From Schmidtea polychroa (lineage: Eukaryota), in NCBI GenBank assembly GCA_044892525.1, contig CM097885.1, positions 12,898,001-12,962,000 on the forward strand: 64,000 bases of DNA, written 5' to 3'. Made by a program: the position numbers and the translations under genes. Below are positions 7,972-19,891 of this stretch, in pieces. The stretch's first letter is position 1. Every line of letters begins with the position of its first letter. The notes below the pieces were generated by a model that saw nothing but the letters and a program-made list of their open reading frames with translations, ran no database searches and was not told the DNA's origin.

Positions 7972-8019
7972 GATATTGTTTTTTAATAATAATTGAGACA
8001 AGGAAAGATACGAATAATT

Positions 8020-8995
8020 GTTGGAATCTATTATTTTTGTCAACACTGCAATCATTATTTATATGGAAAACGGTTCATTTTGAGAACGGTCCATAAAGCT
8101 ATCACGTTTATGTTATCCACAAAGAAATCAATAACAACGCAATTTCAGACATGGATAAACTACCTCAGTAGTCTGGATATTGAAATAGAGTATAGAAAAG
8201 GTACGGATCATGCAAATGTAGACATGCTGTCAAGAAGTACATGTGGAACATGCACACAATGTTTATTGGTACACGAAGACGCAAAAGTGGAAAGAATGAA
8301 AACCAGAAGAATAAACACGATGGAAAAAGCTGAAGATTATAAGTGGCAAAGAGATAATACATAAATAGAACAAATAAAAATTTTGCCGCTAAACAGTATG
8401 AGGAAACGGTGAAGGAAACAATACTACAAAAATGGATTCTTAGATTTGGAACACCAAAGGAAATTCAAACAGATTGTGGAAAAGTATTTGAATATAAGAC
8501 GATGAAAGATTTTACAAAATCAATGGGAATTACACAATGTTTTTCAAGTCCATACCACCATAATACAAATGGTTATATAAATGCATCATTAAAAAAAATA
8601 GAACAGATTGGGCAGTGATCATACCAGAGATTGATTTTACCATGAATGCAACATTTCAGAAATCAATTGGGCGAAGTCCCGCAGAAGTAATATTTGGAAG
8701 TAAAATAGCTCGAGAACAATTTCATAGTAAAGCGCCGATTTCACAAACAGAAGATACACGAGAAACAACGCAGACAAAAAAAATCATTCAATATTGGAGG
8801 TTCTGGTAAAAGTAGAATCAAGAACGAAAGACAAGGAAAGATACGAAGGGCCATACAGAATAATGCAGAAGATCCATCATCGCCGATATCTGCTACAAGA
8901 CTAAAGTGGGAAAATGCTTCAAAGAAATGTTGAAAAGATGAAGAAATTTCTTAAAGAAGGGGGATGTGAGGTGTTTTCAGCTGAGAATTAAATAT
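8020..8995 (+). mobile_element. Ty3/Gypsy LTR retrotransposon pol remnant (RNase H, integrase core, GPY, PPT, start of 3' LTR)
   Basis: HYLYGKRFILRT...IEYRKGTDHANVDMLSR; RFGTPKEIQTDCG...SPYHHNTNG; GPY motif; polypurine tract AAAGAAGGGGGA at 8953-8964 followed by TG; stops and frameshifts. Confidence 0.9.
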
Positions 8996-10387
8996 TTCAA
9001 TGATTTATTAAGATAATTTTAAACTGTAAATAATAGACTATTAAAATAACTTTTAAAATAATTTTTAAATTGAAATTTTTAAATTTTTAAATTGAAAAAT
9101 TAAATTATCTTTTTAAAAGAAGTTTTGTTAATAAATAATTTTTAAATAAATATATTTTAAATATCGAAATTTTAATAAATGGTTTTGAAAATATTTTATT
9201 CATGCTGAAAATTAGTTTGAAAATTATACAATATTTCAGTAAATAAATACTTGGAATAATGACGTTAACTTTTGAACCAGATTTAAAAAATAATTTAGAA
9301 GATGTTTTAGCCGCTTCTAATAATAATAATAATATTTATTATTTTTTAATAAACTAAATTGTTATTTCCTTTACTTTATTATTTCCTCAGGCTATTTATT
9401 AATCTAAAAATAAAGAAAATGTAATAATAATAATAAATATTATTATTAATATTAATGCATATTTTTGTTCACTTTTGAATTTTTTTTATTTTCTTTTAAA
9501 ATTTTATTTGCTTTCAATAAAATAATTTTCAATATCACATATAGACAAAGTAATGAAAAAATAAATGAAATTTTTAAAAGAAAATAATAATAATTATTAT
9601 TATTATAGTTATTTAAAACAATAAAGTGATAATTTAAGCCTTTTGCTGCGAATAATGTATTTAATGACAAAATTTTCGACTATAAGATAGCCCTTTCTCC
9701 GTATTTCCAAGTATTTTGCCCGGCTTAGGCCTTTTGAAAGTATAAAGTGATAATATCTTGGTAGCAGCATTTATTATTTAAAGTGATAATTTAAGCCTTT
9801 TGCTGCAAATAAAGTATTTAATGAAAACATTTTCGACTTGAAAACATTTTCCTTGTCAATCTCCTTTTATACTATTATCCCTATTATAATTATAATCGAG
9901 CCATTTAAAATTAATACGTTATCTCCAAGAAAGATGAAAAATCCAAAATGAATGACCAAGTATTGAAATAATCACACTATAAATAATTAATTAGTCATAA
10001 TTAAATACTTCCTTTCGGTTTTTAACCGAGATTTTCAGTGAAAAATAAGGGTGAATGTAATTTGAGTATATAAAAATCCAAATCCCGGGGATGCTAACCA
10101 GAAAGTTAGTAAATAATAATTCTTAATTATATCCCAACTAAATTTGATGAAAATAAATATACAAAATATAATAATTATAAATTCTATTTATTGGGAATAT
10201 ATGGAAAAGGTACATGAAATTTGGATTCAAATAATTGTAACAATTTATTAATAATATTTTGAGACATTTTTCAGTTCAATTATGCATAGAAATGTACAGA
10301 TGGAGTTGATAGGTTTAATTCTCTCTATTTTATTGGGAAAATGTTTTTTTTAATTTTATTTCATTAATTAATGAATTAAAAAACTAT

Positions 10388-11141
10388 AGTAGGTAGTTAT
10401 GTGCACTCTAGATCCAGATACCCCCCCCTATTTTTTTTGTAAATTTTTAAAAGACCCCCCCCCTTTAATTTTTTTAAAAATTTTTTAAAAGACCCCCCCC
10501 CCATAATTTTTTTTTTAATTTTTAAAATACCCCCCCCTATTTTTTTAATTATCGATTACGTAATAATTTTACTTTTTGTTTTAATCATCGATTACGTAAT
10601 AATCTAAAAATTTTTAAAACGCCGATTACATCATTGATTTTAATTTTTTATAAGAATTTTTTATGTCATTATACTTGAAATTTAATTCTCTGTTAAATGA
10701 GACTATGATGTAATCAAAATTCTGAAATTTCATTTTTAGTACACGATTTTTAAATTTACACATCTTTTTAAACAAATTGAGATGTTTTCACTCAAACAAT
10801 ATATAGATAGAATTTTAATCTCTATAAAATGACATCATTATTTACTTCAAATTCATAATCATAACACCTTAAATAATGTATTTTTCAGCCAACTTTTACA
10901 TACACACATATTTTCAACTTTTAAAAAATACAAATTAATCATCTATACTTAACTCATAGTAAATAATTATATTAAAAGACATATTAAAAGATGTATTAAA
11001 AACTAAACATTTATTAAAATCCCAGAGAAATTCGAGCACTATCTAATTTCCAAATCGGTGATATGACATCTTTCTCATCCAGTTTATATCCCTGTATTGA
11101 AATATTTACAAACCAGCTTTCCCCATCTTTATATTCAATTT
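10388..11141 (+). repeat. Left terminal inverted repeat of the Polinton-like element
   Basis: Reverse complement of 17189-17874, with indels in the C-tract region. Confidence 0.93.
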
Positions 11142-11487
11142 CTTCAAAGGCATCATGAAAACGAGAATTTCGATTGTTGATGATTATATTTCCATTGCAA
11201 CTTAGATTCTTATTGATTTTCCCCAACACTTTATTTACTGCAACAACATCTTCTTTTGTTATATGAGCAATGAAACTTGAATATTGCGACTTGATCAATT
11301 TGACTGCATTTGAGAATTTATATGGAATTTCGTCTACCAAGAAATATATCTTATGGTTATGATACATTTGTACTGGTTTCACATCATTCTTGGCATGCTT
11401 CGTCTCAGTTATTTTCTTAATTGGGCTTGTTTCTTTCAATAAATTAGAAAATGTTTTCTCACCAAAAACGTTCTTCTTGGATTGCAT
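11014..11487 (-). CDS. Polinton accessory protein of unknown function (157 aa)
   Basis: Intact, intronless ATG-TAA ORF with normal protein composition; stop codon overlaps AATAAA. Confidence 0.75.
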   Translation of the reverse strand: MQSKKNVFGEKTFSNLLKETSPIKKITETKHAKNDVKPVQMYHNHKIYFLVDEIPYKFSNAVKLIKSQYSSFIAHITKEDVVAVNKVLGKINKNLSCNGNIIINNRNSRFHDAFEEIEYKDGESWFVNISIQGYKLDEKDVISPIWKLDSARISLGF

Positions 11488-11840
11488 TTTTTAAAAAATA
11501 ATGACTATGATGTCATTTTTTCTCTCTTTTATACTTGTGTATAACCAATCAAATTAATGCATTTGTATTGCAAACAACATGCATGTGTCATTGACCTTCG
11601 TGTGTGACCTTTGTATGTGACCTTTACCTTTGTGACCTTTGTATGTGATTCATACAGGGTTTGCATATGTATTGCAGATGTATTGCAAATTAGTTAATTA
11701 AAACGTGTACTAATTAGTGTGATATTAAAAATATTATACTAATACATGTAACATAAAAATACTATAACATAAAAATAGTGTACTATCACAAGTAACAATA
11801 TAAAATTAGAAAACAATGTATTATAATAACTAAACATTTA

Positions 11841-12200
11841 TTAGTGATCTACAATTAATGAAAAGTGAGCTTTTCTCAACTCTTTTCTTAATATCCATAT
11901 ATTATACTTCTTCTCTCTATCAATACATCCTTCGCACTTGTATGGGCATACTGATGGCTTGCTGCTGTCAACAGGGTCAAGATCGTCTTCTAACGTCCTC
12001 AAGTGATCAAACAAGACCACATTCAAATCTATTCCGGTAGACATCCATATTCTGAATGGAATAATCTCTGGTGCCCAATAGATTAGATCCTTTAAAATAT
12101 TCGGATATAATTCCCCCATTTTCCCAATCAGAATCTGTATCATTTTTTCTAAAACATTTAAAATTATAAATATAAAAAAGCAATAATCAAAATATACCAT
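11841..12200 (-). CDS. Polinton accessory protein of unknown function (up to 119 aa; CxxxCxxC motif)
   Basis: Intact ORF; shares a 16-nt stop/polyA motif with the neighbouring ORF; the true start may be a downstream ATG. Confidence 0.65.
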   Translation of the reverse strand: MVYFDYCFFIFIILNVLEKMIQILIGKMGELYPNILKDLIYWAPEIIPFRIWMSTGIDLNVVLFDHLRTLEDDLDPVDSSKPSVCPYKCEGCIDREKKYNIWILRKELRKAHFSLIVDH

Positions 12201-12328
12201 TTACAGTTAAATTTGACATTCTCAACTAGTACTAAATAAATGATTAAACTGTTATTGTATATATATATATATACTTATTTCGATACACACCATCAACCAA
12301 TTGGATTCATGCATAGACGATTGTAACT

Positions 12329-12793
12329 TTAGTTTAGGAAAAATTTTAAAAATTCCATGTCATCAATTACTGATTTAATATCTTTAATAATTTTATAAAC
12401 AAGTAAATGGTAATCCAATGTCTTTATACCGAGTATAACTACTTTACCACTATTGAATATGTTAACACACATTGGATTATATTTTATATATCTTAATGCC
12501 GGAAATATTTCTGGTTCATAAATACATTTCATATACTTTGATAAATCATTTAAAATAACATTTGATTCAATATCAGCAGTAACTGTAATCGATTGAATTT
12601 GTAAATCCTTGATTTCATATTTTAAATCTTCAACTTTGATCGATTTTTTACATCCCATTATTCGACATTTACCTGACTTGAAAAATATTATTGAATTTTT
12701 ACCGCTTCTGTCAACAATTTGTTGCGGTTTACCTTTTGGAAATTCCATATGAGATACATCAAATCTACCTTTATAATTTATATTACTAATCAT
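12329..12793 (-). CDS. TATA-binding protein (TBP)-like protein, 154 aa, intronless
   Basis: Two TBP repeats: ISNI...IIFFKSGKCRIMG and IQSI...YEPEIFPAL...NIFNSGKVVILG (canonical TBP: LIFSSGKMVCTG and YEPELFPGL...LIFVSGKVVLTG). Confidence 0.92.
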   Translation of the reverse strand: MISNINYKGRFDVSHMEFPKGKPQQIVDRSGKNSIIFFKSGKCRIMGCKKSIKVEDLKYEIKDLQIQSITVTADIESNVILNDLSKYMKCIYEPEIFPALRYIKYNPMCVNIFNSGKVVILGIKTLDYHLLVYKIIKDIKSVIDDMEFLKFFLN

Positions 12794-12882
12794 ATTTTTT
12801 CAAATAATTTTTCATCAAGTAAACTGATGAATTAAAACAAATATAAACAATATTAATATATATATATAACTAATTTTTTAAA

Positions 12883-13470
12883 ATGGAATTAAGAAATGAT
12901 GCTGTTTATCAAATTGTAGGTCCAAGCGGTAGCGGTAAAACTTTATTTGTTTGTAAATTATTACAATCAAAAATGTTCAAGTCAAAATTCAATAAAATAT
13001 ATTGGCATAGGGGTGCTGATGACGAACATGGTTTGACGCAAGAACAATTCTGTAAATTAAAAATGACAATAATAAAAGGATTTGATAAAAACTGGTCATC
13101 TAGATTACAACAAGGTGATGTAATTATTATTGATGATTTATATCAAGAAGCTAACAAAGAAAAAGATTTTAATAATTTATTTACAAAAATATCTCGACAT
13201 CAAGGTGTAACAGTTATTTTTATAACACAAAATCTGTTTCATCAGGGTGGGAGTCATCGAACTCGGAACTTGAATGTTCAATATCTCGTTATTTTCAAAA
13301 ATCCGAGGGATGCAACTGTTATTGATTTCATTGCAAGACAAGCATATCCAAACAATCGTAACTTTCTAATTGAATCATTTCAAGATGCAACCAAAATACC
13401 CCATGGATATTTATTCTTTGATTTTACTCAGCAATGCATGGATGATGTACGTATTAGGACAGATTTTTAA
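12883..13470 (+). CDS. A32-like (FtsK/HerA superfamily) DNA packaging ATPase of Polinton type
   Basis: Walker A GPSGSGKT, Walker B VIIIDD, arginine finger SRH, ITQ sensor, FKNPRD and HGYLFFD motifs. Confidence 0.93.
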   Translation: MELRNDAVYQIVGPSGSGKTLFVCKLLQSKMFKSKFNKIYWHRGADDEHGLTQEQFCKLKMTIIKGFDKNWSSRLQQGDVIIIDDLYQEANKEKDFNNLFTKISRHQGVTVIFITQNLFHQGGSHRTRNLNVQYLVIFKNPRDATVIDFIARQAYPNNRNFLIESFQDATKIPHGYLFFDFTQQCMDDVRIRTDF

Positions 13471-14710
13471 TAAAGATGGTGTAACAGTTTATAAACAAAT
13501 TAAATTCTGTCTGACTATTAGGCAAGTGTTATTTGTGGTATACTTTTTCAATGTCATTTCTTATCAATTCCCACCATAAAACACAGATACCTAAATATAA
13601 TATATATATTTTAAAGAATTAATTCATGTCTTACATTAATAATAATATTCTTCAGGTATGACGAGTACTTTACTTAATTGCTAAAACATCGGTTTTTCCC
13701 ATTTTTCTTGACATTCGTTGAAAGAAAGTTTACATAATTTAAATCTGATAAGTAAACATTCATGTTGAAGGACACCCACAATCAGCTAATTCATTTAAAA
13801 AAAAATCCAGAACATAAGTCATTTAGTGTTTCACCATTTTGCCTGGTTCATCTTCTTCATAATCCAATAATTCATGTTTTAATAAGAAATCTCTAAATCC
13901 AGAACATAAGTCCTTTAGTATTTCACCATTTTGTCTGGTTCATCTTCTTCATAGTTATATAATTCATTTTCTTCATTACTAAGTAAAATAATTAAAATAT
14001 TGTAGTAAATTCTTTATTTACTTACTTTATGGATACTAAAACAAAAGAAATAAAGTTATATGAAAAGTTTATTTAAATAATTTAAATTTAGTTATTTAAA
14101 AATATTTAAACAATTTAGTTCTTTAAGCATATTTAAACATTAACATTATTATATAGTACAATTTTATATAGTATTATAATATTATAATTTTATGTATTCT
14201 AAATTTATTAATAAATACAGTATAATTTTATATAATATTATAATATTATGTATTGTAAATTTAATATATCCTTCATTTAATTTTTTAAATTCAAAAATTT
14301 ATAATGAAGATTCTTTGAATTAAAAAATATTCTGTTAGTATTTCCAGGCAGAAAACAACGAATTCAATAATTAAAATCTTAATTTTCATGTTGTTAGGGT
14401 TGTGGCCAGAAGTTAATCGCCATCTAATCGTTTGTTCTCAATTTCGCTCATTTTTGTTCAAAACATTCAGGTGAGTTGTTATCTGGAAATTTTCTTTGAG
14501 CTCAGTTTTGTTAAAACACTCACGGTATTTTTAAGGGACGTGTCACTGGAAATAAATTAACAATGGGTAGTTGGTCTGAGCTGTCGATTTATTTTAGAAA
14601 TATGTATATTAAAAACATTTAAGTTATCATTCAGTAAAATAATATAATATTTTTGAGTATGTTTTAGTTAATTTATAAATAACAGTATTTTGATATATCA
14701 ATAAAGACCA

Positions 14711-16795
14711 TATACTCCTAGTTTATCCGACAAAATATTCTGTCCCCCTATGGGTATTGCTAGCAAGGGTACTGGTCACATTCAACATGTCGCAAGGCTA
14801 TATTAATCATTTAGAAATTCTTAGGTAATTTAGTGAGATGATCGTGAATATTTTAAATGTAACTTTACACTTATGTCGAGCGACTAATTTATTGGTTAAC
14901 TTTGTAGTCATTTAAAGCAAAAATTAATTTATTCATCTAATGTTCGTTACAATAGTTAATAATATGAGAAAAACATGGTCATTATTCATTGATAATTTTA
15001 AATTCTTTATCATTTGGAGTAAATTTGTTTGAGGCAAAAATATTTAAAGGAGTCATAATAAAAATATGGTTATCATTTAACCAATTAAGGGGCTTATTAG
15101 TTAGAAATATATATTATAAAGTAACAATTATTTTCTAATTTAATTAGATGATCATTAGACGTAATATATCTTTGCGAGAAATTTAAGATGTTTGAGTAAC
15201 CAAAACATGGATATTTTGTGAGATAAATTTATGAATATTGTTTAATTTTGTTATTTTTAGTCATTTAAAATAATATTTAGCAAAGGTAATTTAGCAAAAT
15301 ATCATTTATCCACCCGATAACAATATTCCTTCAATAGATTAACTGATATTCAACCTATTTAATTTCTGGTAATATAATTAAAATCATAAATTTCCTTCAA
15401 TAAAGTTAAAATTTCTTTAGTTGTCAATGTCCAACTCTTTTAAGTCAATATTTTTGATACCGTTACTTCATAATGAATGTCCGTCTTTATCATGTTAAAT
15501 AAAATAATTTAAAGCAATAACCTTTGATATCAATTATCTCTAAATATTTCAAATATTTCATTGACAAAACCAAGTAAATTAGTCATTAACCCTAAACACT
15601 TCAATAAAATCCTGGATAATTAATAGACTATTTCCCTTGAAACATTTCCAAAAAGAACATCACCCATTTAAATGATCAAAACATTTCCACCGTAACCGAT
15701 CCCTCACCAAATATTTCTACCCCTTTAAACATTCAACCGACAATAACCCCCTTAAATACTATATATTCTCAACTTAACTGAACCCTCACTAAATCCAACC
15801 GACTATAATTTCACCCACTTGAGCCCTTTAATATATCTTAAAATCTATAGAAAATTCTTCAAAATATGAATTTTATTTAATTGTTACAGACATTTTTCCA
15901 TTGAAATAATTTAGTAGCTAAATTCATGTAGTAAGAGCCCATTAAAAAATCAAAATTTACTAAAATCAATATTTTCTACAAATATTTCACCACATTTACC
16001 ATCAAATACCTAACTAGAAATGAAATATATCGATTGATCATAATTCTTCATCGATTCAGCTAATTATATAGCAATTATAACGTGATATATCTTTCAAAAT
16101 CACAAATTTCAGTATATTTTACAATAATTTTTACAAAAATTAAATAATAATAACTTGATTATTGTAAAAACTCTAATTATTAACCTAACTGTCATTAAAA
16201 ATATTATTATTTAAAAGTAAATTTAAAAACAAGTCAATAAAATATAGCAAATTATCAAGAAATTAATTAAATTTGTCTTAGAATTAACACTAAAACGTTA
16301 AATTTCAAAATATTCTTTCAATTATTCACAAAAAGGTTAGTAATAATGTTAGTAAAATCCCGCTAACTCTAAAAATTACCAACGAATTTAATGCTAAATA
16401 ATAACCAAAAATTTGCCTAAATAAAACACACCAGTACCTTTACGACCAGTACCCTTACGAGCAGTACATTAGTAACCTTTACCTTTGCGACCATTACCCA
16501 ATGTGTTAATAAATTTTAGTGTATATATAAAGTATAATATTTAGAATTTCTTTGTTAAAGTTCTGTCTTGAATATTTTTAACAGTACCTTTGCGACCTTT
16601 ACCTTTGTGACCACTACCCAATGTGTTAATAAATTTGAGTGTATATTTAAAGTATAATATTTAAAATTTCTTTGTTAAACTTTTGTCTTGAATATTTTTA
16701 GCAGTACATTTGTGACCTTTACCTTTGTGACCTTTACTTTTGTGACCATTACCCATAGGGGGACAGAATATTTTGTCGGATAGACTCGGACTATA
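14711..16795. mobile_element. Inverted-repeat-bounded segment (MITE-like) inside the Polinton
   Basis: 45-bp inverted repeats at 14711-14755 and 16751-16795 (3 mismatches), TA at both ends; tandem subrepeats at 16430-16760. Confidence 0.65.
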
Positions 16796-16815
16796 TATAA
16801 TTATAATACTTTGAA

Positions 16816-16902
<87 letters not shown>

Positions 16903-17188
16903 TTGTTGCATGTGTGGACACTAATAAGATTTTTTATACATTGTGTGTAATAATATGTTAAAGTTTTAGCAGTACCTTTGTGACCATTACCCTTAGAGGA
17001 ACAGAATATCTTGTCTGATAGACTATATATGATAATACAAAGTATGTGCAATAATTTTATTTTGTCAACTTAACCGTCAAAATAAGTTTTTAAAATAAAT
17101 TTTAAATTTTAAAATACCGCAACGTAATATATTTAAAAAGTATGATGAGTCATGTGTGTCTTTGTATGCAATATGTCTTTGTTATATA

Positions 17189-17874
17189 AAATTGAATATA
17201 AAGATGGGGAAAGCTGGTTTGTAAATATGTCAATACAGGGATATAAAATAGTTGAGAAAGATTTCATATCACTGATTTGGAAATTAGATAGTGCTCGAAT
17301 TTCTCTGGGATTTTAATAAATGTTTAGTTTTTAATACATCTTTTAATATGTCTTTTAATATAATTATTTACTATGAGTTAAGTATAGATGAATAATTTGT
17401 ATTTTTTAAAAGTTGAAAATATGTGTGTATGTAAAAGTTGGCTGAAAAATACATTATTTAAGGTGTTATGATTATGAATTTGAATTAAATAATGATGTCA
17501 TTTTATAGAGATTAAAATTCTATCTATATATTGTTTGAGTGAAAATATCTCAATTTGTTTAAAAAGATGTGTAAATTTAAAAATCGTGTACTAAAAATGA
17601 AATTTCAGAATTTTGATTACATCATAGTCTCATTTAACAGAGAATTAAATTTCAAGTATAATGACATAAAATATTCTTATAAAAAATTAAAATCAGTGAC
17701 GTAATCTACATCATAAAAAATTATTACGTAATCGATGATTAAAACAAAAAATAAAATTATTACGTAATCGATAATTAAAACAAAATTTAAATTTAAAAAA
17801 AAAATAAAAATAAAGGGGGGGGGGTATCTGGATCTAGAATGCACATGGATCTAGAGTGCACATAACTACCTACT
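17189..17874 (-). repeat. Right terminal inverted repeat of the Polinton-like element
   Basis: Reverse complement of 10388-11141; includes a copy of the 3' end of ORF 11014-11487. Confidence 0.93.
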
Positions 17875-19891
17875 AACTATGAACCCTTCTTTAAAAGGTG
17901 TACCTTTTCTTTGTGATTTATTTCTGGAAAACTGATCCAGTTTAAAATGTAAAAGAAGGTTTCCTTGGATTTAGAAATTAAACTTAGAGCGAACCGAGTT
18001 GCTCTGTTACGTAGGCTGCAATATGACATCTGTAATGATCTGGGAAACATTTGGAATCGTTTTTTTTAATAATCATGTTTTTCTATTTCAAAAATTATTG
18101 CTATATAAATAAATGATAAGATAAGCCTTTTGCTTTTAAGTATGCGTTAAATAAACAAAGTTCGATTTGAAATTGAAAAGGATTGTTTTATCATTTATTT
18201 GTTTAAGATTTAATTTATGCTGCTACCAAAAAATCATCATTTTATTATATTAAAAATATTGTTAAATAAACCTTCACAACCAACTCATGAATCGTTCATA
18301 TCAAATTCTAATGGCGTTACAATTAATTTTATCATGTCATTCCTAGCTGTAAACTTATTTTAACTTGGTTATGGAAACATTACAGGCAAATTAGTTTTAT
18401 AGCAATTGTCCATTTTTTGTTGAATGTAACCATATATATTGATGATTGTTATTCTAATTGTTTCCATTTTTTCCTTTCTACTTTTATCCAACAGTTTAGT
18501 AGTGAGTAAATCAAAATGGTATTTGTCTCAAATGTTTATATCTGCTACCATACTTACGGGATAATATTCTCTTGTGGGCTTAATGAATAAAGCGGTTACG
18601 CTATGGAACAAATGGTGCATTCTCCCTTATACACCCGTTTCCACATGTTAAAAGTCTCTATAATGCATGTTGGTGTGTTCATCAATCGATGACTCACCAT
18701 TTATGAGAGAGTTTATTTTATTTTTTCATTTTCAATTCAATTTTATTTATGATTTTAGAAGTAAGTTTTTTAAATTTAAGTACACTATAGGACATTGATT
18801 TATCATGCGGACATTCAATTAGCTAAAGATTTTCCATTTAAAATTAATTAATTATAAAAAAATATACAAGAATATGTCAGAAACTTCATCAGAATCGACT
18901 ATTTCATTACAAGAAATACATAGATGAATGCTCTTCAATAGACGGACGAACAAGAGCTTCGGTAGATCACGAGTAGACAATAGAATTTATAACAATATAC
19001 CAACAAATCGAGGTCTCAATTTTCAAAGATGAGCTAATCCATTTACAGTAATATATCTTCATTGACTATTCAAATAGAAAAATTGCCATATAATCCATTT
19101 TTGAACCCCATCGAAAGTGTTGAGCAAAATTAAAAATGGGGTAAGGACTAAAGTTTCTTCGGTTGATGGATTTTCCAGACAGATTTACCTTCAATGAATG
19201 ATTTACTGCAATATCCCAAGCAGTTAACAAGGAACTTCGAAAACCAGATCATAATAATTTCAAAAATCATATTAATAATCACATTAAAGATTCTTCCCTA
19301 AATTCTTGATATTTTAATAAAACTATGAAAAAGTTAATGTATATTATAATAAATAAATAAATATCTTACTTCTTTATTCATTATTTTAACAAAAAATCTT
19401 AAAATTAACTAAAATCCAGAACAAAGCTTATTTGACAAAGCTAAATGAATGTCTCATTTATGATAATTAAATGCGCTTTGGTGTATGTGTTCTGTGTTTG
19501 TATGTAAAATTATTTTTCTGTCACTTTGTCAATTCCTATAATAAAACTTTTAACATTCGGAACATTAAATTTTTGCACACAGGTAAGTTTGTGTGTTGCT
19601 ATAATATAATTTTATCGTTTTTTTTTAGATTATAGAAACTTTTATATTGTGGATTTAGGTGTATTGTATGTGTCAAATAAACGAGATGTTTATTTGTGCG
19701 TGTGTATGTTTTCAGTTTTTTTCTGCGTTTAAATTAAGCATGTGTTGTATGTGTATGTTTGTGTGTGTGTGATAAAATTTACTGTAAGATATTAGATTGA
19801 ATATCAAAATATTTTAAATGTTTTGGAGATTACTAGTTTTGTTTAAAAATACGAAACGAATCGATATATTTACTGATTCATAGTCAAGCTT

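Follow-up and report, generated by a model that had tools for sequence, protein, structure and literature searches.

We analysed a 64,000-nucleotide stretch of Schmidtea polychroa DNA, here called the window, which holds only eight ATG-initiated open reading frames (ORFs) of at least 100 aa, four of them grouped at positions 11014-13470. These four lie within an element that spans 10388-17874 (7,487 bp), has directly read 5'-AG...CT-3' termini, and is bounded by terminal inverted repeats (TIRs) of ~700 bp and a 6-bp target-site duplication (TSD), AACTAT. Long TIRs, a 6-bp TSD and 5'-AG...CT-3' ends are the hallmarks of Maverick/Polinton elements, and the window copy has all three. Its features are, in order:

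10382-10387, no strand: left TSD, AACTAT; the same hexamer is found at 17875-17880
10388-11141, + strand: left TIR, where the element begins 5'-AGTAGG (from inverted-repeat arms and direct reading of the end)
11014-11487, - strand: ORF158, a 157-aa ORF whose 3' end lies within the TIR; no Pfam family
11841-12200, - strand: lineage-specific 119-aa ORF (from the ORF list)
12329-12793, - strand: TBP-like ORF, 154 aa, stop-free under the standard code, with a predicted two-repeat TBP saddle
12794-12882, no strand: divergent intergenic region between the TBP-like ORF and the ATPase, 89 bp (from subfamily comparison)
12842-12849, + strand: TATAAACA box, 41 nt ahead of the ATPase ATG
12883-13470, + strand: packaging ATPase of A32/IVa2 type, 195 aa (from Pfam)
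13490-13497, + strand: second TATAAACA box, immediately past the ATPase stop codon
13510-17188, no strand: filler unlike the longer copies (from comparison with longer element copies)
17189-17874, - strand: right TIR (from inverted-repeat arms and direct reading of the end)
17875-17880, no strand: right TSD, AACTAT (from direct reading)

The main TIR arms (10608-11141 and 17189-17722) run over 534 nt at 97% identity, and further arm pairs lie at 10540-10603/17720-17783 and 10399-10438/17807-17846. The TBP-like ORF and the packaging ATPase are divergently oriented, with 89 bp between them. The ATPase frame matches Pox_A32 (E=2.9e-6; 27.4 bits, cut-off 22.8) and, also above the Pfam cut-off, RNA_helicase (E=1.1e-6); it is shorter in the window copy (195 aa) than in other copies (207-210 aa), and the ATPase of another subfamily reaches 29.8 bits against Pox_A32. 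The TIRs, 6-bp TSD and adjoining packaging ATPase described in a first-pass annotation of this DNA are thus all in place, while its broader description, a Polinton-like element that encodes its own TBP-like factor, holds for the element family but not for the window copy as a complete Polinton, since the pPolB, integrase, capsid and protease genes are all absent from it. Longer copies match the window copy only over 10388-13509 and the right TIR, and part of the filler (13510-16131) is a non-coding high-copy repeat of another kind. The window copy is an internally deleted, non-autonomous derivative.

In 20 of 55 metagenome loci a tblastn relative of ORF158 adjoins the TBP-like gene, and the ORF itself gives a weak lead to phage ssDNA-binding proteins, with a score of 0.87 that lies below the 0.9 line. 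The 119-aa ORF has zero relatives at E≤1e-5 across the same 55 loci. A ciliate genetic code was rejected for this DNA, as it yields 184 overlapping ORFs and many read-through stops, whereas the standard code gives intact homologous ORFs. None of the sequencing runs catalogued as RNA contains this DNA; one run of guessed kind has a 579-nt contig over 12325-12909, which says nothing on transcription.

Longer copies of the family add an rve integrase with a chromodomain (rve E=6.1e-8; 33.3 bits, cut-off 32.6), a double-jelly-roll capsid candidate, an adenain-type protease (Peptidase_C5 E=1.1e-5; 25.6 bits, cut-off 21.3) and pPolB (DNA_pol_B_2 E=2.5e-16 in one copy). The capsid candidate, a 428-aa ORF with zero Pfam matches and zero PDB sequence matches at E≤1, gave a weak structural model (pLDDT 57.2). 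Even so, when 48,161 chains were compared with this model, every one of the top 12 was a double-jelly-roll capsid or scaffold protein, at Z 10.7-6.8 and a high rmsd of ~20 Å; among them are those of PBCV-1 (10.7), Faustovirus (10.5), ASFV p72 (10.1), hexon (8.7), Sputnik (8.4) and mavirus (8.1). The positional candidate for a single-jelly-roll penton is an ORF of 338-360 aa that precedes the capsid gene and has no Pfam family match.

The 154-aa ORF matches Pfam PF00352 over two stretches (E=3.3e-15; 56.1 bits, cut-off 22.9), in agreement with the first-pass annotation, which had read it as an intact ORF with both TBP repeats. Profile-profile comparison with canonical TBPs gave a probability of 99.6% (E=2.6e-24), and TBPs account for 35 of the 36 matches listed in a PDB sequence search, the top one being archaeal TBP 2z8u (E=2.2e-15). 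An AlphaFold model of the protein (pLDDT 94.9, pTM 0.84) was compared with the PDB by Foldseek, and all 44 matches at E≤0.001 are TBPs, at TM 0.57-0.70 and in full-length alignments of 164-177 columns, so that HMM search and structure prediction both return the TBP fold.

A TBP repeat has the architecture S1-H1-S2-S3-S4-S5-H2, with both helices on the convex face. In the model, repeat 2 is complete in this respect and closes with a long C-terminal helix, whereas repeat 1 (residues 1-61) consists of strands alone, with zero helices of at least four residues, and the profile-profile alignment has a 13-column gap at the site of repeat-1 helix H2. As modelled, the protein is a reduced variant of the TBP fold, not a different fold. 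Across 43 sequences, N4, I5, N6, Y7, P23, C43, R44, F97 and F113 are invariant, and F18, F38, E93, P94 and E95 are conserved in at least 90%. If the four DNA-kinking phenylalanine positions are taken to be those of yeast and human TBP, F38, F97 and F113 align with three of them, and at the fourth stands P23, which is invariant; F18, nearly invariant, lies five residues ahead of it. The acidic C-terminal stirrup, Y-E-P-E-[IL]-F-P, is retained and aligns with YEPE[LQ]FPGL of TBPs; its E93-P94-E95 region corresponds to the TFIIB contact of cellular TBP. The first stirrup is remodelled in the profile-profile alignment with canonical TBPs, and because of this and the proline at one kinking position, classical TATA bending is not guaranteed. 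On the host side, the one contiguous two-repeat frame among those retrieved for TFIIB is Brf1-like (PDB 6eu0, E=2.6e-27), TFIIB proper being intron-split.

The gene is widespread. The S. polychroa genome gave 4,168 first-look candidates, of which 150 were scored, all at E≤5.8e-57, and the frame is open in 54 of 57 loci taken from the genome. At least five subfamilies carry it, with 51-68% amino-acid identity between them. Public protein sets contain 88 relatives, none of them an NCBI/UniRef entry, and PF00352 is found in 87; among cluster representatives, 57 are related at E≤1e-30 and 793 at E≤1e-10. A viral contig collection returned zero relatives with the TBP alignment, the capsid candidate or the capsid alignment as query. 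A core Maverick gene is present in 22 of the 55 metagenome loci, and in 19 of the 25 that have at least 1.5 kb of flank; the gene thus keeps company with pPolB, integrase, ATPase, adenain and capsid genes. In S. polychroa the TBP-like gene lies near the element end, adjoining the packaging ATPase, and in a second synteny it follows the protease, distant from the ATPase (loci L078, L080, L082, L086, L087, L089 and L090).

NG86 dN/dS is 0.06-0.37 in nine of ten subfamily pairs, the tenth being not computable, while YN00 gave no value for nine of the ten because synonymous sites are saturated; the TBP-like gene is under purifying selection. In a quick IQ-TREE phylogeny, the 72 rows of the family group in a clade of their own (SH-aLRT 99), separate from 17 cellular TBPs, including three host paralogues, and archaeal TBPs also fall outside it. 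Given at least five subfamilies, low dN/dS, core-gene neighbours and a separate clade, a single capture from the host does not account for the gene. The first-pass annotation had named three outcomes that would count against it, namely no TBP fold, a one-off retrocopy of host TBP/TRF, or dN/dS of about 1; the fold is present, the gene is no such retrocopy and dN/dS is not near 1, so that none of the three applies. The TBP-like ORF is a minimal TBP paralogue and a standing gene of a large adintovirus-like Maverick/Polinton clade.

An observation new to this follow-up analysis is the TATAAACA motif, which contains a perfect TATAAA. In the 89-bp intergenic region, AATATAAACAATA is the sole block conserved in subfamilies A-D, the remainder being divergent. 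Across the 55 metagenome loci TATAAACA is the top enriched 8-mer outside low-complexity words and is present in 29; it occurs 87 times in sense (13.5 expected) and 19 times in antisense (11.9 expected), a 6.4-fold sense enrichment. The most distant relatives keep the strand bias (12 sense, 1 antisense, in 13 loci). The enrichment comes from these metagenome relatives, which are GC-richer than the window; in the AT-rich 64-kb window itself, 25 occurrences against 15.1 expected are not significant.

The boxes stand mostly 20-120 nt ahead of the ATPase, capsid-module and integrase ORFs. An ATG-ORF of at least 80 aa begins 20-120 nt past 56 of the 87 sense boxes, compared with 12.1% of random positions; many of the motif-bearing relatives are kin to each other, so that the p-value of this comparison overstates their independence. 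Boxes are found upstream of the ATPase in 12 of 15 loci, the capsid candidate in 6 of 7, ORF122 in 6 of 6 and the integrase in 4 of 10. The distance to the ATPase ATG is 33-41 nt in subfamilies A-D and 32-36 nt in 11 of 15 metagenome relatives. The modal box-to-ATG spacing is 20-39 nt, and for this reason a start ~30 nt past the TATA would leave almost no 5' leader; animal Pol II genes are seldom so arranged, and this counts against a promoter role. The box is absent ahead of the TBP gene (0 of 48); there, in non-redundant sets, TATAWAWR occurs in 18 of 41 and an Inr-like motif, TCA[TC][TA], in 31 of 41. Canonical TATAWAWR 8-mers have no gene-strand enrichment (TATAAAAG, 15 against 14.3 expected; TATAAATA, 30 sense and 33 antisense). 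This, with the avoidance of TATAAACA by the TBP gene, suggests two promoter classes within the elements.

Our best reading is that the elements encode an initiation factor for their own TATA-variant promoters, to which we give a probability of about 0.5. Host machinery would transcribe the TBP-like gene from its host-type promoter, and the product would bind TATAAACA boxes, with the intact C-terminal repeat on the TATA half and the remodelled N-terminal repeat on the unusual AACA half. The conserved stirrup would then recruit host TFIIB and Pol II and turn on the morphogenesis genes, and loss of the repeat-1 helices would free the protein from host regulators acting through that surface. Judged from sequence, the arrangement suggests that the element brings its own switch for capsid and packaging genes, and the proposal of the first-pass annotation that Pol II initiation may be redirected is strengthened by the presence of TATAAACA upstream of morphogenesis genes and its absence at the TBP gene. 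A fuller version is more tentative: in a self-contained two-step programme, host TBP would fire the TATA and Inr motifs on the TBP gene, whose product would read a private TATAAACA box, with its C where the remodelled N-terminal half sits, and thereby switch on the packaging, capsid and integrase genes.

Since host TBP should bind TATAAA as well, the box alone does not call for a dedicated factor. Host TBP may therefore read TATAAACA too, with the element copy acting as a supplement that boosts initiation capacity or evades TBP regulators (TAF1, NC2, Mot1), for instance in silenced chromatin. The perfect TATAAA inside the box and the canonical C-terminal repeat and stirrup are consistent with this, as is the loss of both repeat-1 helices, whose surface such regulators use in cellular TBP. 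We consider it unlikely, because gene-strand enrichment is seen for TATAAACA but not for canonical TATAWAWR 8-mers, and because the TBP gene avoids the box.

A role in DNA architecture, with the saddle bending AT-rich TIRs, an origin or a packaging signal for protein-primed replication or for the ATPase, rather than acting in transcription, would fit a gene near the element end that adjoins the packaging ATPase in S. polychroa and has ORF158, with its ssDNA-binding lead, as a frequent neighbour. It is improbable in view of the second synteny, which places the gene far from the ATPase, the near-invariance of the stirrup residues, and boxes that are scattered along the gene strand and not clustered at element ends. 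We give slightly less credence still to a decoy or repressor that sits on TATA boxes or sequesters TFIIB, leading to host shut-off or element latency. Cells do have TBP-related factors whose DNA binding is altered, and a remodelled N-terminal half without one kinking phenylalanine could form non-productive complexes, but long conservation beside a promoter-like motif on the gene strand fits an activator more simply.

The motif may instead be unrelated to the protein, as a host forkhead-factor site (RYAAAYA, a core that ATAAACA within TATAAACA fits) or a poly(A)-signal variant. Some boxes stand directly past a stop codon, as in the window and at the same place past the ATPase stop in L057, L064, L089 and L094, and for these a TATAAA poly(A)-signal variant is arguable. 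Other boxes lie within the coding sequence of the upstream gene, and the ATPase box of S. polychroa has no co-directional gene upstream of it and so is not a poly(A) signal there. GTAAACA, which fits a forkhead site better, shows no enrichment (23 occurrences in sense and 24 in antisense against 21.2 expected), and ATAAACA is enriched only when T precedes it (87, against 12, 15 and 12 after A, C and G), leaving this explanation very improbable. A passenger gene, copied once from host TBP/TRF and without function for the element, draws on the several intronless TBP paralogues of host genomes and is scarcely credible against five subfamilies, metagenome relatives in two syntenies, dN/dS of 0.06-0.37 and a clade separate from the host paralogues.

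The usual account of Mavericks/Polintons is of a fixed gene set for replication, integration and the capsid, with expression left wholly to the host. If an element-encoded initiation factor is the correct reading, a conserved TBP paralogue and a clade-wide promoter box would give these elements control of their own transcription initiation, a temporal (early/late) programme in Mavericks would be probable, and the view of Mavericks as working viruses and not passive transposons would gain support. A transposon-like virus without RNA polymerase would then encode a general transcription factor and a promoter code. One protein and one 8-mer would form a simple cis/trans pair that is directly testable, the 154-aa protein, with helices in one repeat only, would be a minimal TBP from nature in which to study what the saddle requires, and the TBP-like gene with TATAAACA would be a sequence marker by which the clade can be recognised in genomes and metagenomes.

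A literature search for a prior description of a Maverick TBP returned one mention, the gene label 'TBP' in the legend of Fig. 5 of Starrett et al. 2021 (PMC8502044; preprint 10.1101/697771), for MELD viruses with adintovirus-like PolB in a section on non-animal datasets. In the parts of that source available to us, the label is a legend entry only, undiscussed in the text and absent from one supplementary file. It would place a TBP homologue in a Polinton-related midsize dsDNA virus, so that such homologues in this virus supergroup are not wholly unmentioned. The accessible part of a planarian genome preprint (10.64898/2025.12.11.693146) reports Maverick expansions and has nothing on their gene content.

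The protein shares with cellular and archaeal TBPs the two-repeat saddle, the S1 'N-I-x' strands, and the C-terminal YEPE[LI]FP stirrup, with phenylalanines aligned at both kinking positions of that half. It differs from them in its length (154 aa against a core of ~180), in a repeat 1 without H1 and H2 and with P23 at a kinking position, in its ~21-28% identity to solved TBPs, in its separate clade and in being encoded by a mobile element. Its best fold matches in BFVD are TBP-like proteins of NCLDVs (E=2e-7 to 1e-4), from Heterosigma akashiwo virus 01, Terrestrivirus, Aureococcus virus and an asfarvirus B263R homologue. These are longer (189-547 aa in the matches) and 10-22% identical to it, and NCLDVs are far larger and have their own RNA polymerase, unlike a Maverick element of 15-20 kb that has none.

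The TBP mimics of beta/gamma-herpesviruses (the UL87/BcRF1/ORF24 family) read TATT-type late promoters. The likeness here would be one of mode of action and not of membership, in that a TBP-like factor encoded by the virus goes together with a departure from the canonical TATA on late genes, and by this analogy the Maverick pair may be to small viruses what the vTBP/TATT late switch is to herpesviruses. The mimics are large (~440-1,000 aa in the matches), with a single TBP-like domain and no detectable sequence similarity, and fold matches to U58, BcRF1 and UL87-domain proteins are weak (E=3.5e-3 to 3.3e-2). Promoter motifs of virophages and polinton-like viruses, for example mavirus, are matched to the helper giant virus, and they too are single short motifs repeated upstream of most genes that tie expression to particular machinery. 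There, the trans-acting machinery comes from the helper virus, whereas the Maverick encodes the candidate factor itself and no helper is implied.

The strongly AT-rich window (20–31% G+C in 2-kb steps) contains eight ATG-initiated ORFs of at least 100 aa, four of which cluster at 11014–13470.

Features of the element and its gene pair (window positions)
10382–10387 and 17875–17880: target-site hexamer AACTAT, on both flanks of the element
10388–17874: element with termini 5'-AG...CT-3', ends read directly
10399–11141 paired with 17189–17846: inverted repeats, 534 nt at 97% plus shorter pieces
12329–12793, (−): TBP-like ORF, single open frame, 154 aa, standard code
12842–12849: TATAAACA box, upstream of the window ATPase
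12883–13470, (+): A32-like P-loop ATPase, 195 aa, above the Pox_A32 and RNA_helicase thresholds
13510–16131: non-coding high-copy repeat, unrelated to longer Maverick copies

The TBP-like ORF matches Pfam TBP (PF00352) in two stretches (E=3.3e-15, 56.1 bits, cut-off 22.9), and 35 of the 36 PDB sequences that match it at E≤1 are TBPs, with archaeal proteins at the top (2z8u, E=2.2e-15; 1mp9, E=9.3e-13). A structure predicted from an alignment of 43 relatives (mean pLDDT 94.9, pTM 0.84) has the TBP fold: Foldseek against the PDB matched 44 chains at E≤0.001, every one a TBP (TM 0.57–0.70, 164–177 columns). Among viral structure predictions it comes closest to TBP-like proteins from large DNA viruses (Heterosigma akashiwo virus 01, E=2e-7); U58/BcRF1/UL87-type proteins of herpesviruses rank far lower.

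The second repeat of the predicted structure is complete (strand 62–74, helix 81–85, strands 90–92, 99–102, 109–113 and 117–123, helix 129–153). The first consists of strands 2–10, 25–28, 34–38 and 42–48, with no helix of four residues within residues 1–61, and profile-profile alignment of the family with ten canonical TBPs (probability 99.6%, E=2.6e-24) places a 13-column gap at the position of repeat-1 helix H2. Residues F38, F97 and F113 align with DNA-kinking phenylalanines of cellular TBP, and the fourth such position is occupied by P23. The segment E93-P94-E95-I96-F97-P98 aligns with the C-terminal stirrup (YEPE[LQ]FPGL) of canonical TBPs, whose acidic residues touch TFIIB in the cellular protein. 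Across 43 sequences P23 is invariant, and the three phenylalanines and the stirrup residues are invariant or almost so. In cellular TBP complexes, one half of the protein covers the 5' TATA part of the box and the other half the 3' part; by these residues, the half on the 5' part is therefore canonical and the half on the 3' part remodelled.

The ATPase lies on the opposite strand, 89 bp from the start of the TBP-like gene. Together with the inverted repeats and flanking hexamers, this bears out the first-pass annotation, which had described an intact ORF with both TBP repeats inside TIRs and a 6-bp TSD, next to a packaging ATPase; that observation was right throughout. This copy, however, is not a whole Polinton but a broken derivative. 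It matches longer copies only over 10388–13509 and in the right TIR, and 28 of 29 other copies of its subfamily are collinear up to base 13509 and then continue differently. The ATPase frame, 195 aa against 207–210 aa in other copies, stops early, just before the 13509/13510 breakpoint. The repeat at 13510–16131 (~2.1–2.6 kb; 9,763 first-look candidates genome-wide) is frequently found as two nearby copies in inverted orientation, e.g. C1:111496082(+) with 111501121(−). Immediately left of the element, at 7993–8941(+), are frameshifted Ty3/gypsy remnants (RT_RNaseH, E=1.6e-7; rve, E=6.1e-7, under the cut-off).

In the host assembly (781 Mb, four chromosome-sized contigs), we found 4,168 first-look candidates for the TBP-like protein, all 150 of those scored having E≤5.8e-57, and 4,942 for the ATPase. 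From 20-kb views around seven copies, several of which carry disruptions, the gene order reads: divergent TBP-like/ATPase pair, small ORF, rve integrase with chromodomain, 338–360-aa ORF, 122–135-aa ORF, 425–430-aa ORF, Peptidase_C5 adenain and DNA_pol_B_2 polymerase (Pfam names). The 428-aa ORF among these, the capsid candidate, gave a poor model (pLDDT 57.2). Out of 48,161 chains compared, the 12 that match it best, at high rmsd, are nevertheless all capsid or scaffold proteins with a double jelly roll (Z: PBCV-1 10.7, Faustovirus 10.5, ASFV p72 10.1, adenovirus hexon 8.7, Sputnik 8.4, mavirus 8.1). These elements belong to the adintovirus-like Mavericks/Polintons. The TBP-like frame is open in 54 of 57 fetched loci and falls into at least five subfamilies in the genome (148–170 aa, 51–68% protein identity).

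The gene is not a stray host copy. Between subfamilies, NG86 dN/dS is 0.06–0.37 rather than about 1 in the nine pairs, out of ten, for which it was computable; saturation at synonymous sites (dS near or above 1) makes these values rough. Against the commonest copy, the window's subfamily shows 35 synonymous and 42 non-synonymous differences (site ratio 4.31), counts that are not independent, since four synonymous changes common to five copies enter the tally from every one of them. Besides the element copies, the host has at least six TBP-family loci (L045–L051): a canonical TBP gene (124 bits) and five or more others, three of which are intronless two-repeat frames of 215, 212 and 166 aa. A quickly computed maximum-likelihood tree with 89 rows, namely 5 element copies, 67 relatives from public sets, these 3 host paralogues and 14 cellular TBPs (intron-split host TBP genes omitted), places the short TBP-like family in its own 72-row clade (SH-aLRT 99), apart from the three paralogues, which group with eukaryotic TBPs within the 17-row cellular clade (support 99). 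The several subfamilies, the separate clade and Maverick-linked relatives in metagenomes all speak against a one-off retrocopy. This Maverick clade keeps a conserved TBP-fold protein under selection.

A word-indexed protein search returned 88 relatives (97–199 aa; PF00352 in 87), none of them an NCBI or UniRef entry. When 1.84 billion cluster representatives were searched with a profile, 57 matched at E≤1e-30 and 793 at E≤1e-10; the 3,479 that matched at E≤0.001 include cellular TBPs. A viral contig collection yielded no relative. Metagenome contigs supplied 55 loci with 37–51% identity over full-length matches (61% in a 51-residue fragment, L105). By tblastn with S. polychroa element proteins, at least one core Maverick gene lies in 22 of the 55, and in 19 of the 25 whose flank reaches 1.5 kb or more on either side; counting either of two accessory ORFs raises the latter to 24 of 25, and L099 has no core or accessory match in its 2.3-kb flank. 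The TBP-like gene stands before the ATPase in some loci (e.g. L057, L064, L094) and after the protease in others (e.g. L078, L080, L089), and has been relocated within the element yet retained. The first-pass observation holds and extends further than was stated. The most frequent neighbour (20 of 55 loci; relatives in L053–L083) is ORF158, a 157-aa ORF at 11014–11487(−) in the window whose 3' end lies inside the TIR. It had no match in Pfam; by language-model similarity it lies nearest to ssDNA-binding proteins of phages (0.87, under the 0.9 line), and an SSB, if it were one, would suit protein-primed replication.

The spacer between the TBP-like gene and the ATPase (89–184 bp in four subfamilies) has diverged save for a block, AATATAAACAATA, that puts the TATA-type 8-mer TATAAACA 41, 33, 34 and 37 nt before the ATPase ATG. 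Two subfamily-C spacers differ in length (184 bp, L039+L040; 103 bp, L043+L044) because a (TA)n run in the first greatly exceeds its counterpart in the second, a short TATATATA run at the corresponding position; the adjoining TATAAACA block is unchanged. Across the 55 metagenome loci (170,127 nt, 33.5% G+C; expectations from base composition), the box occurs 87 times on the TBP-like gene strand (13.5 expected) and 19 times on the other (11.9 expected). It is present in 29 loci, ranks first among non-simple-repeat words in an unbiased count of all 8-mers, and remains in the 13 loci that are most distant (12 sense, 1 antisense). Control words are flat (TATAAATA, 30 and 33 on the two strands; TATAAAAG, 15 and 7 against 14.3 expected). 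Fifty-six of the 87 boxes lie 20–120 nt upstream of an ATG-ORF of at least 80 aa, 29 of them at 20–39 nt, against 12.1% of random positions (binomial p 3e-30, overstated because the loci are related).

Loci with TATAAACA within 160 nt upstream, by gene
ATPase: 12/15, 11 at −32 to −36
Capsid candidate: 6/7
ORF122: 6/6
Integrase: 4/10
ORF358: 2/6
Protease: 0/6
Polymerase: 0/1
TBP-like gene: 0/48

A strand-specific TATA-type box thus precedes the morphogenesis and integrase genes, whereas the TBP-like gene has a different, host-type layout: in non-redundant sets, TATAWAWR lies at −70 to −21 in 18/41 and TCA[TC][TA] at −30 to −1 in 31/41, against 2/12 for each motif at the ATPase. In the 120 nt upstream of metagenome TBP-like genes, regions without a canonical TATA often have TTGTTT[TA]A[AC]T ~50–70 nt before the ATG, often accompanied by ATCATAATT near the ATG, a second putative promoter layout of this gene.

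We give roughly even odds (about 0.5) to the reading, drawn from these sequence patterns, that the protein is an element-encoded initiation factor. The host would start transcription of the TBP-like gene; its product would bind TATAAACA and, through the canonical stirrup, bring TFIIB and Pol II. The remodelled first half may read the C at box position 7, and the missing helices could release the protein from host regulators. That the box is private to this factor is a more tentative proposal. Against the initiation-factor reading, host TBP should bind TATAAA as well, and the box is not significantly enriched within the AT-rich window (25 found, 15.1 expected). Moreover, the modal box-to-ATG distance across box-bearing genes, 20–39 nt, implies leaders of a few nt if the usual TATA-to-start spacing holds; leaders may truly be short, transcripts may be trans-spliced, or initiation may follow another geometry. 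We found no TBP-less Maverick relatives for comparison of the box. A forkhead-site interpretation of TATAAACA fits less well: the forkhead word GTAAACA shows no enrichment (23 sense, 24 antisense, 21.2 expected), and ATAAACA is in excess only where a T precedes it. At least 12 intronless open frames (301–310 aa) elsewhere in the genome match the TFIIB cyclin repeat (PF00382, 37.9–43.7 bits) in local clusters on two chromosomes (C3:38.2–39.1 Mb, C1:23.8–24.2 Mb), a multi-copy family that is possibly another mobile-element-borne initiation factor.

In the portion of the literature available to us, the sole mention of TBP in Polinton-related viruses is a gene label in the Fig. 5 legend of Starrett et al. 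2021 (PMC8502044), in whose accessible text TBP is not discussed and in whose accessible supplementary text it does not occur. New here are the TATAAACA box and the division of promoters into two classes. The closest functional parallels are giant-virus TBP homologues and the TBP mimic that herpesviruses use for their late genes; the closest cis-element parallel, as far as the accessible accounts describe it, is the promoter motifs of virophages and polinton-like viruses, which are keyed to the helper giant virus.
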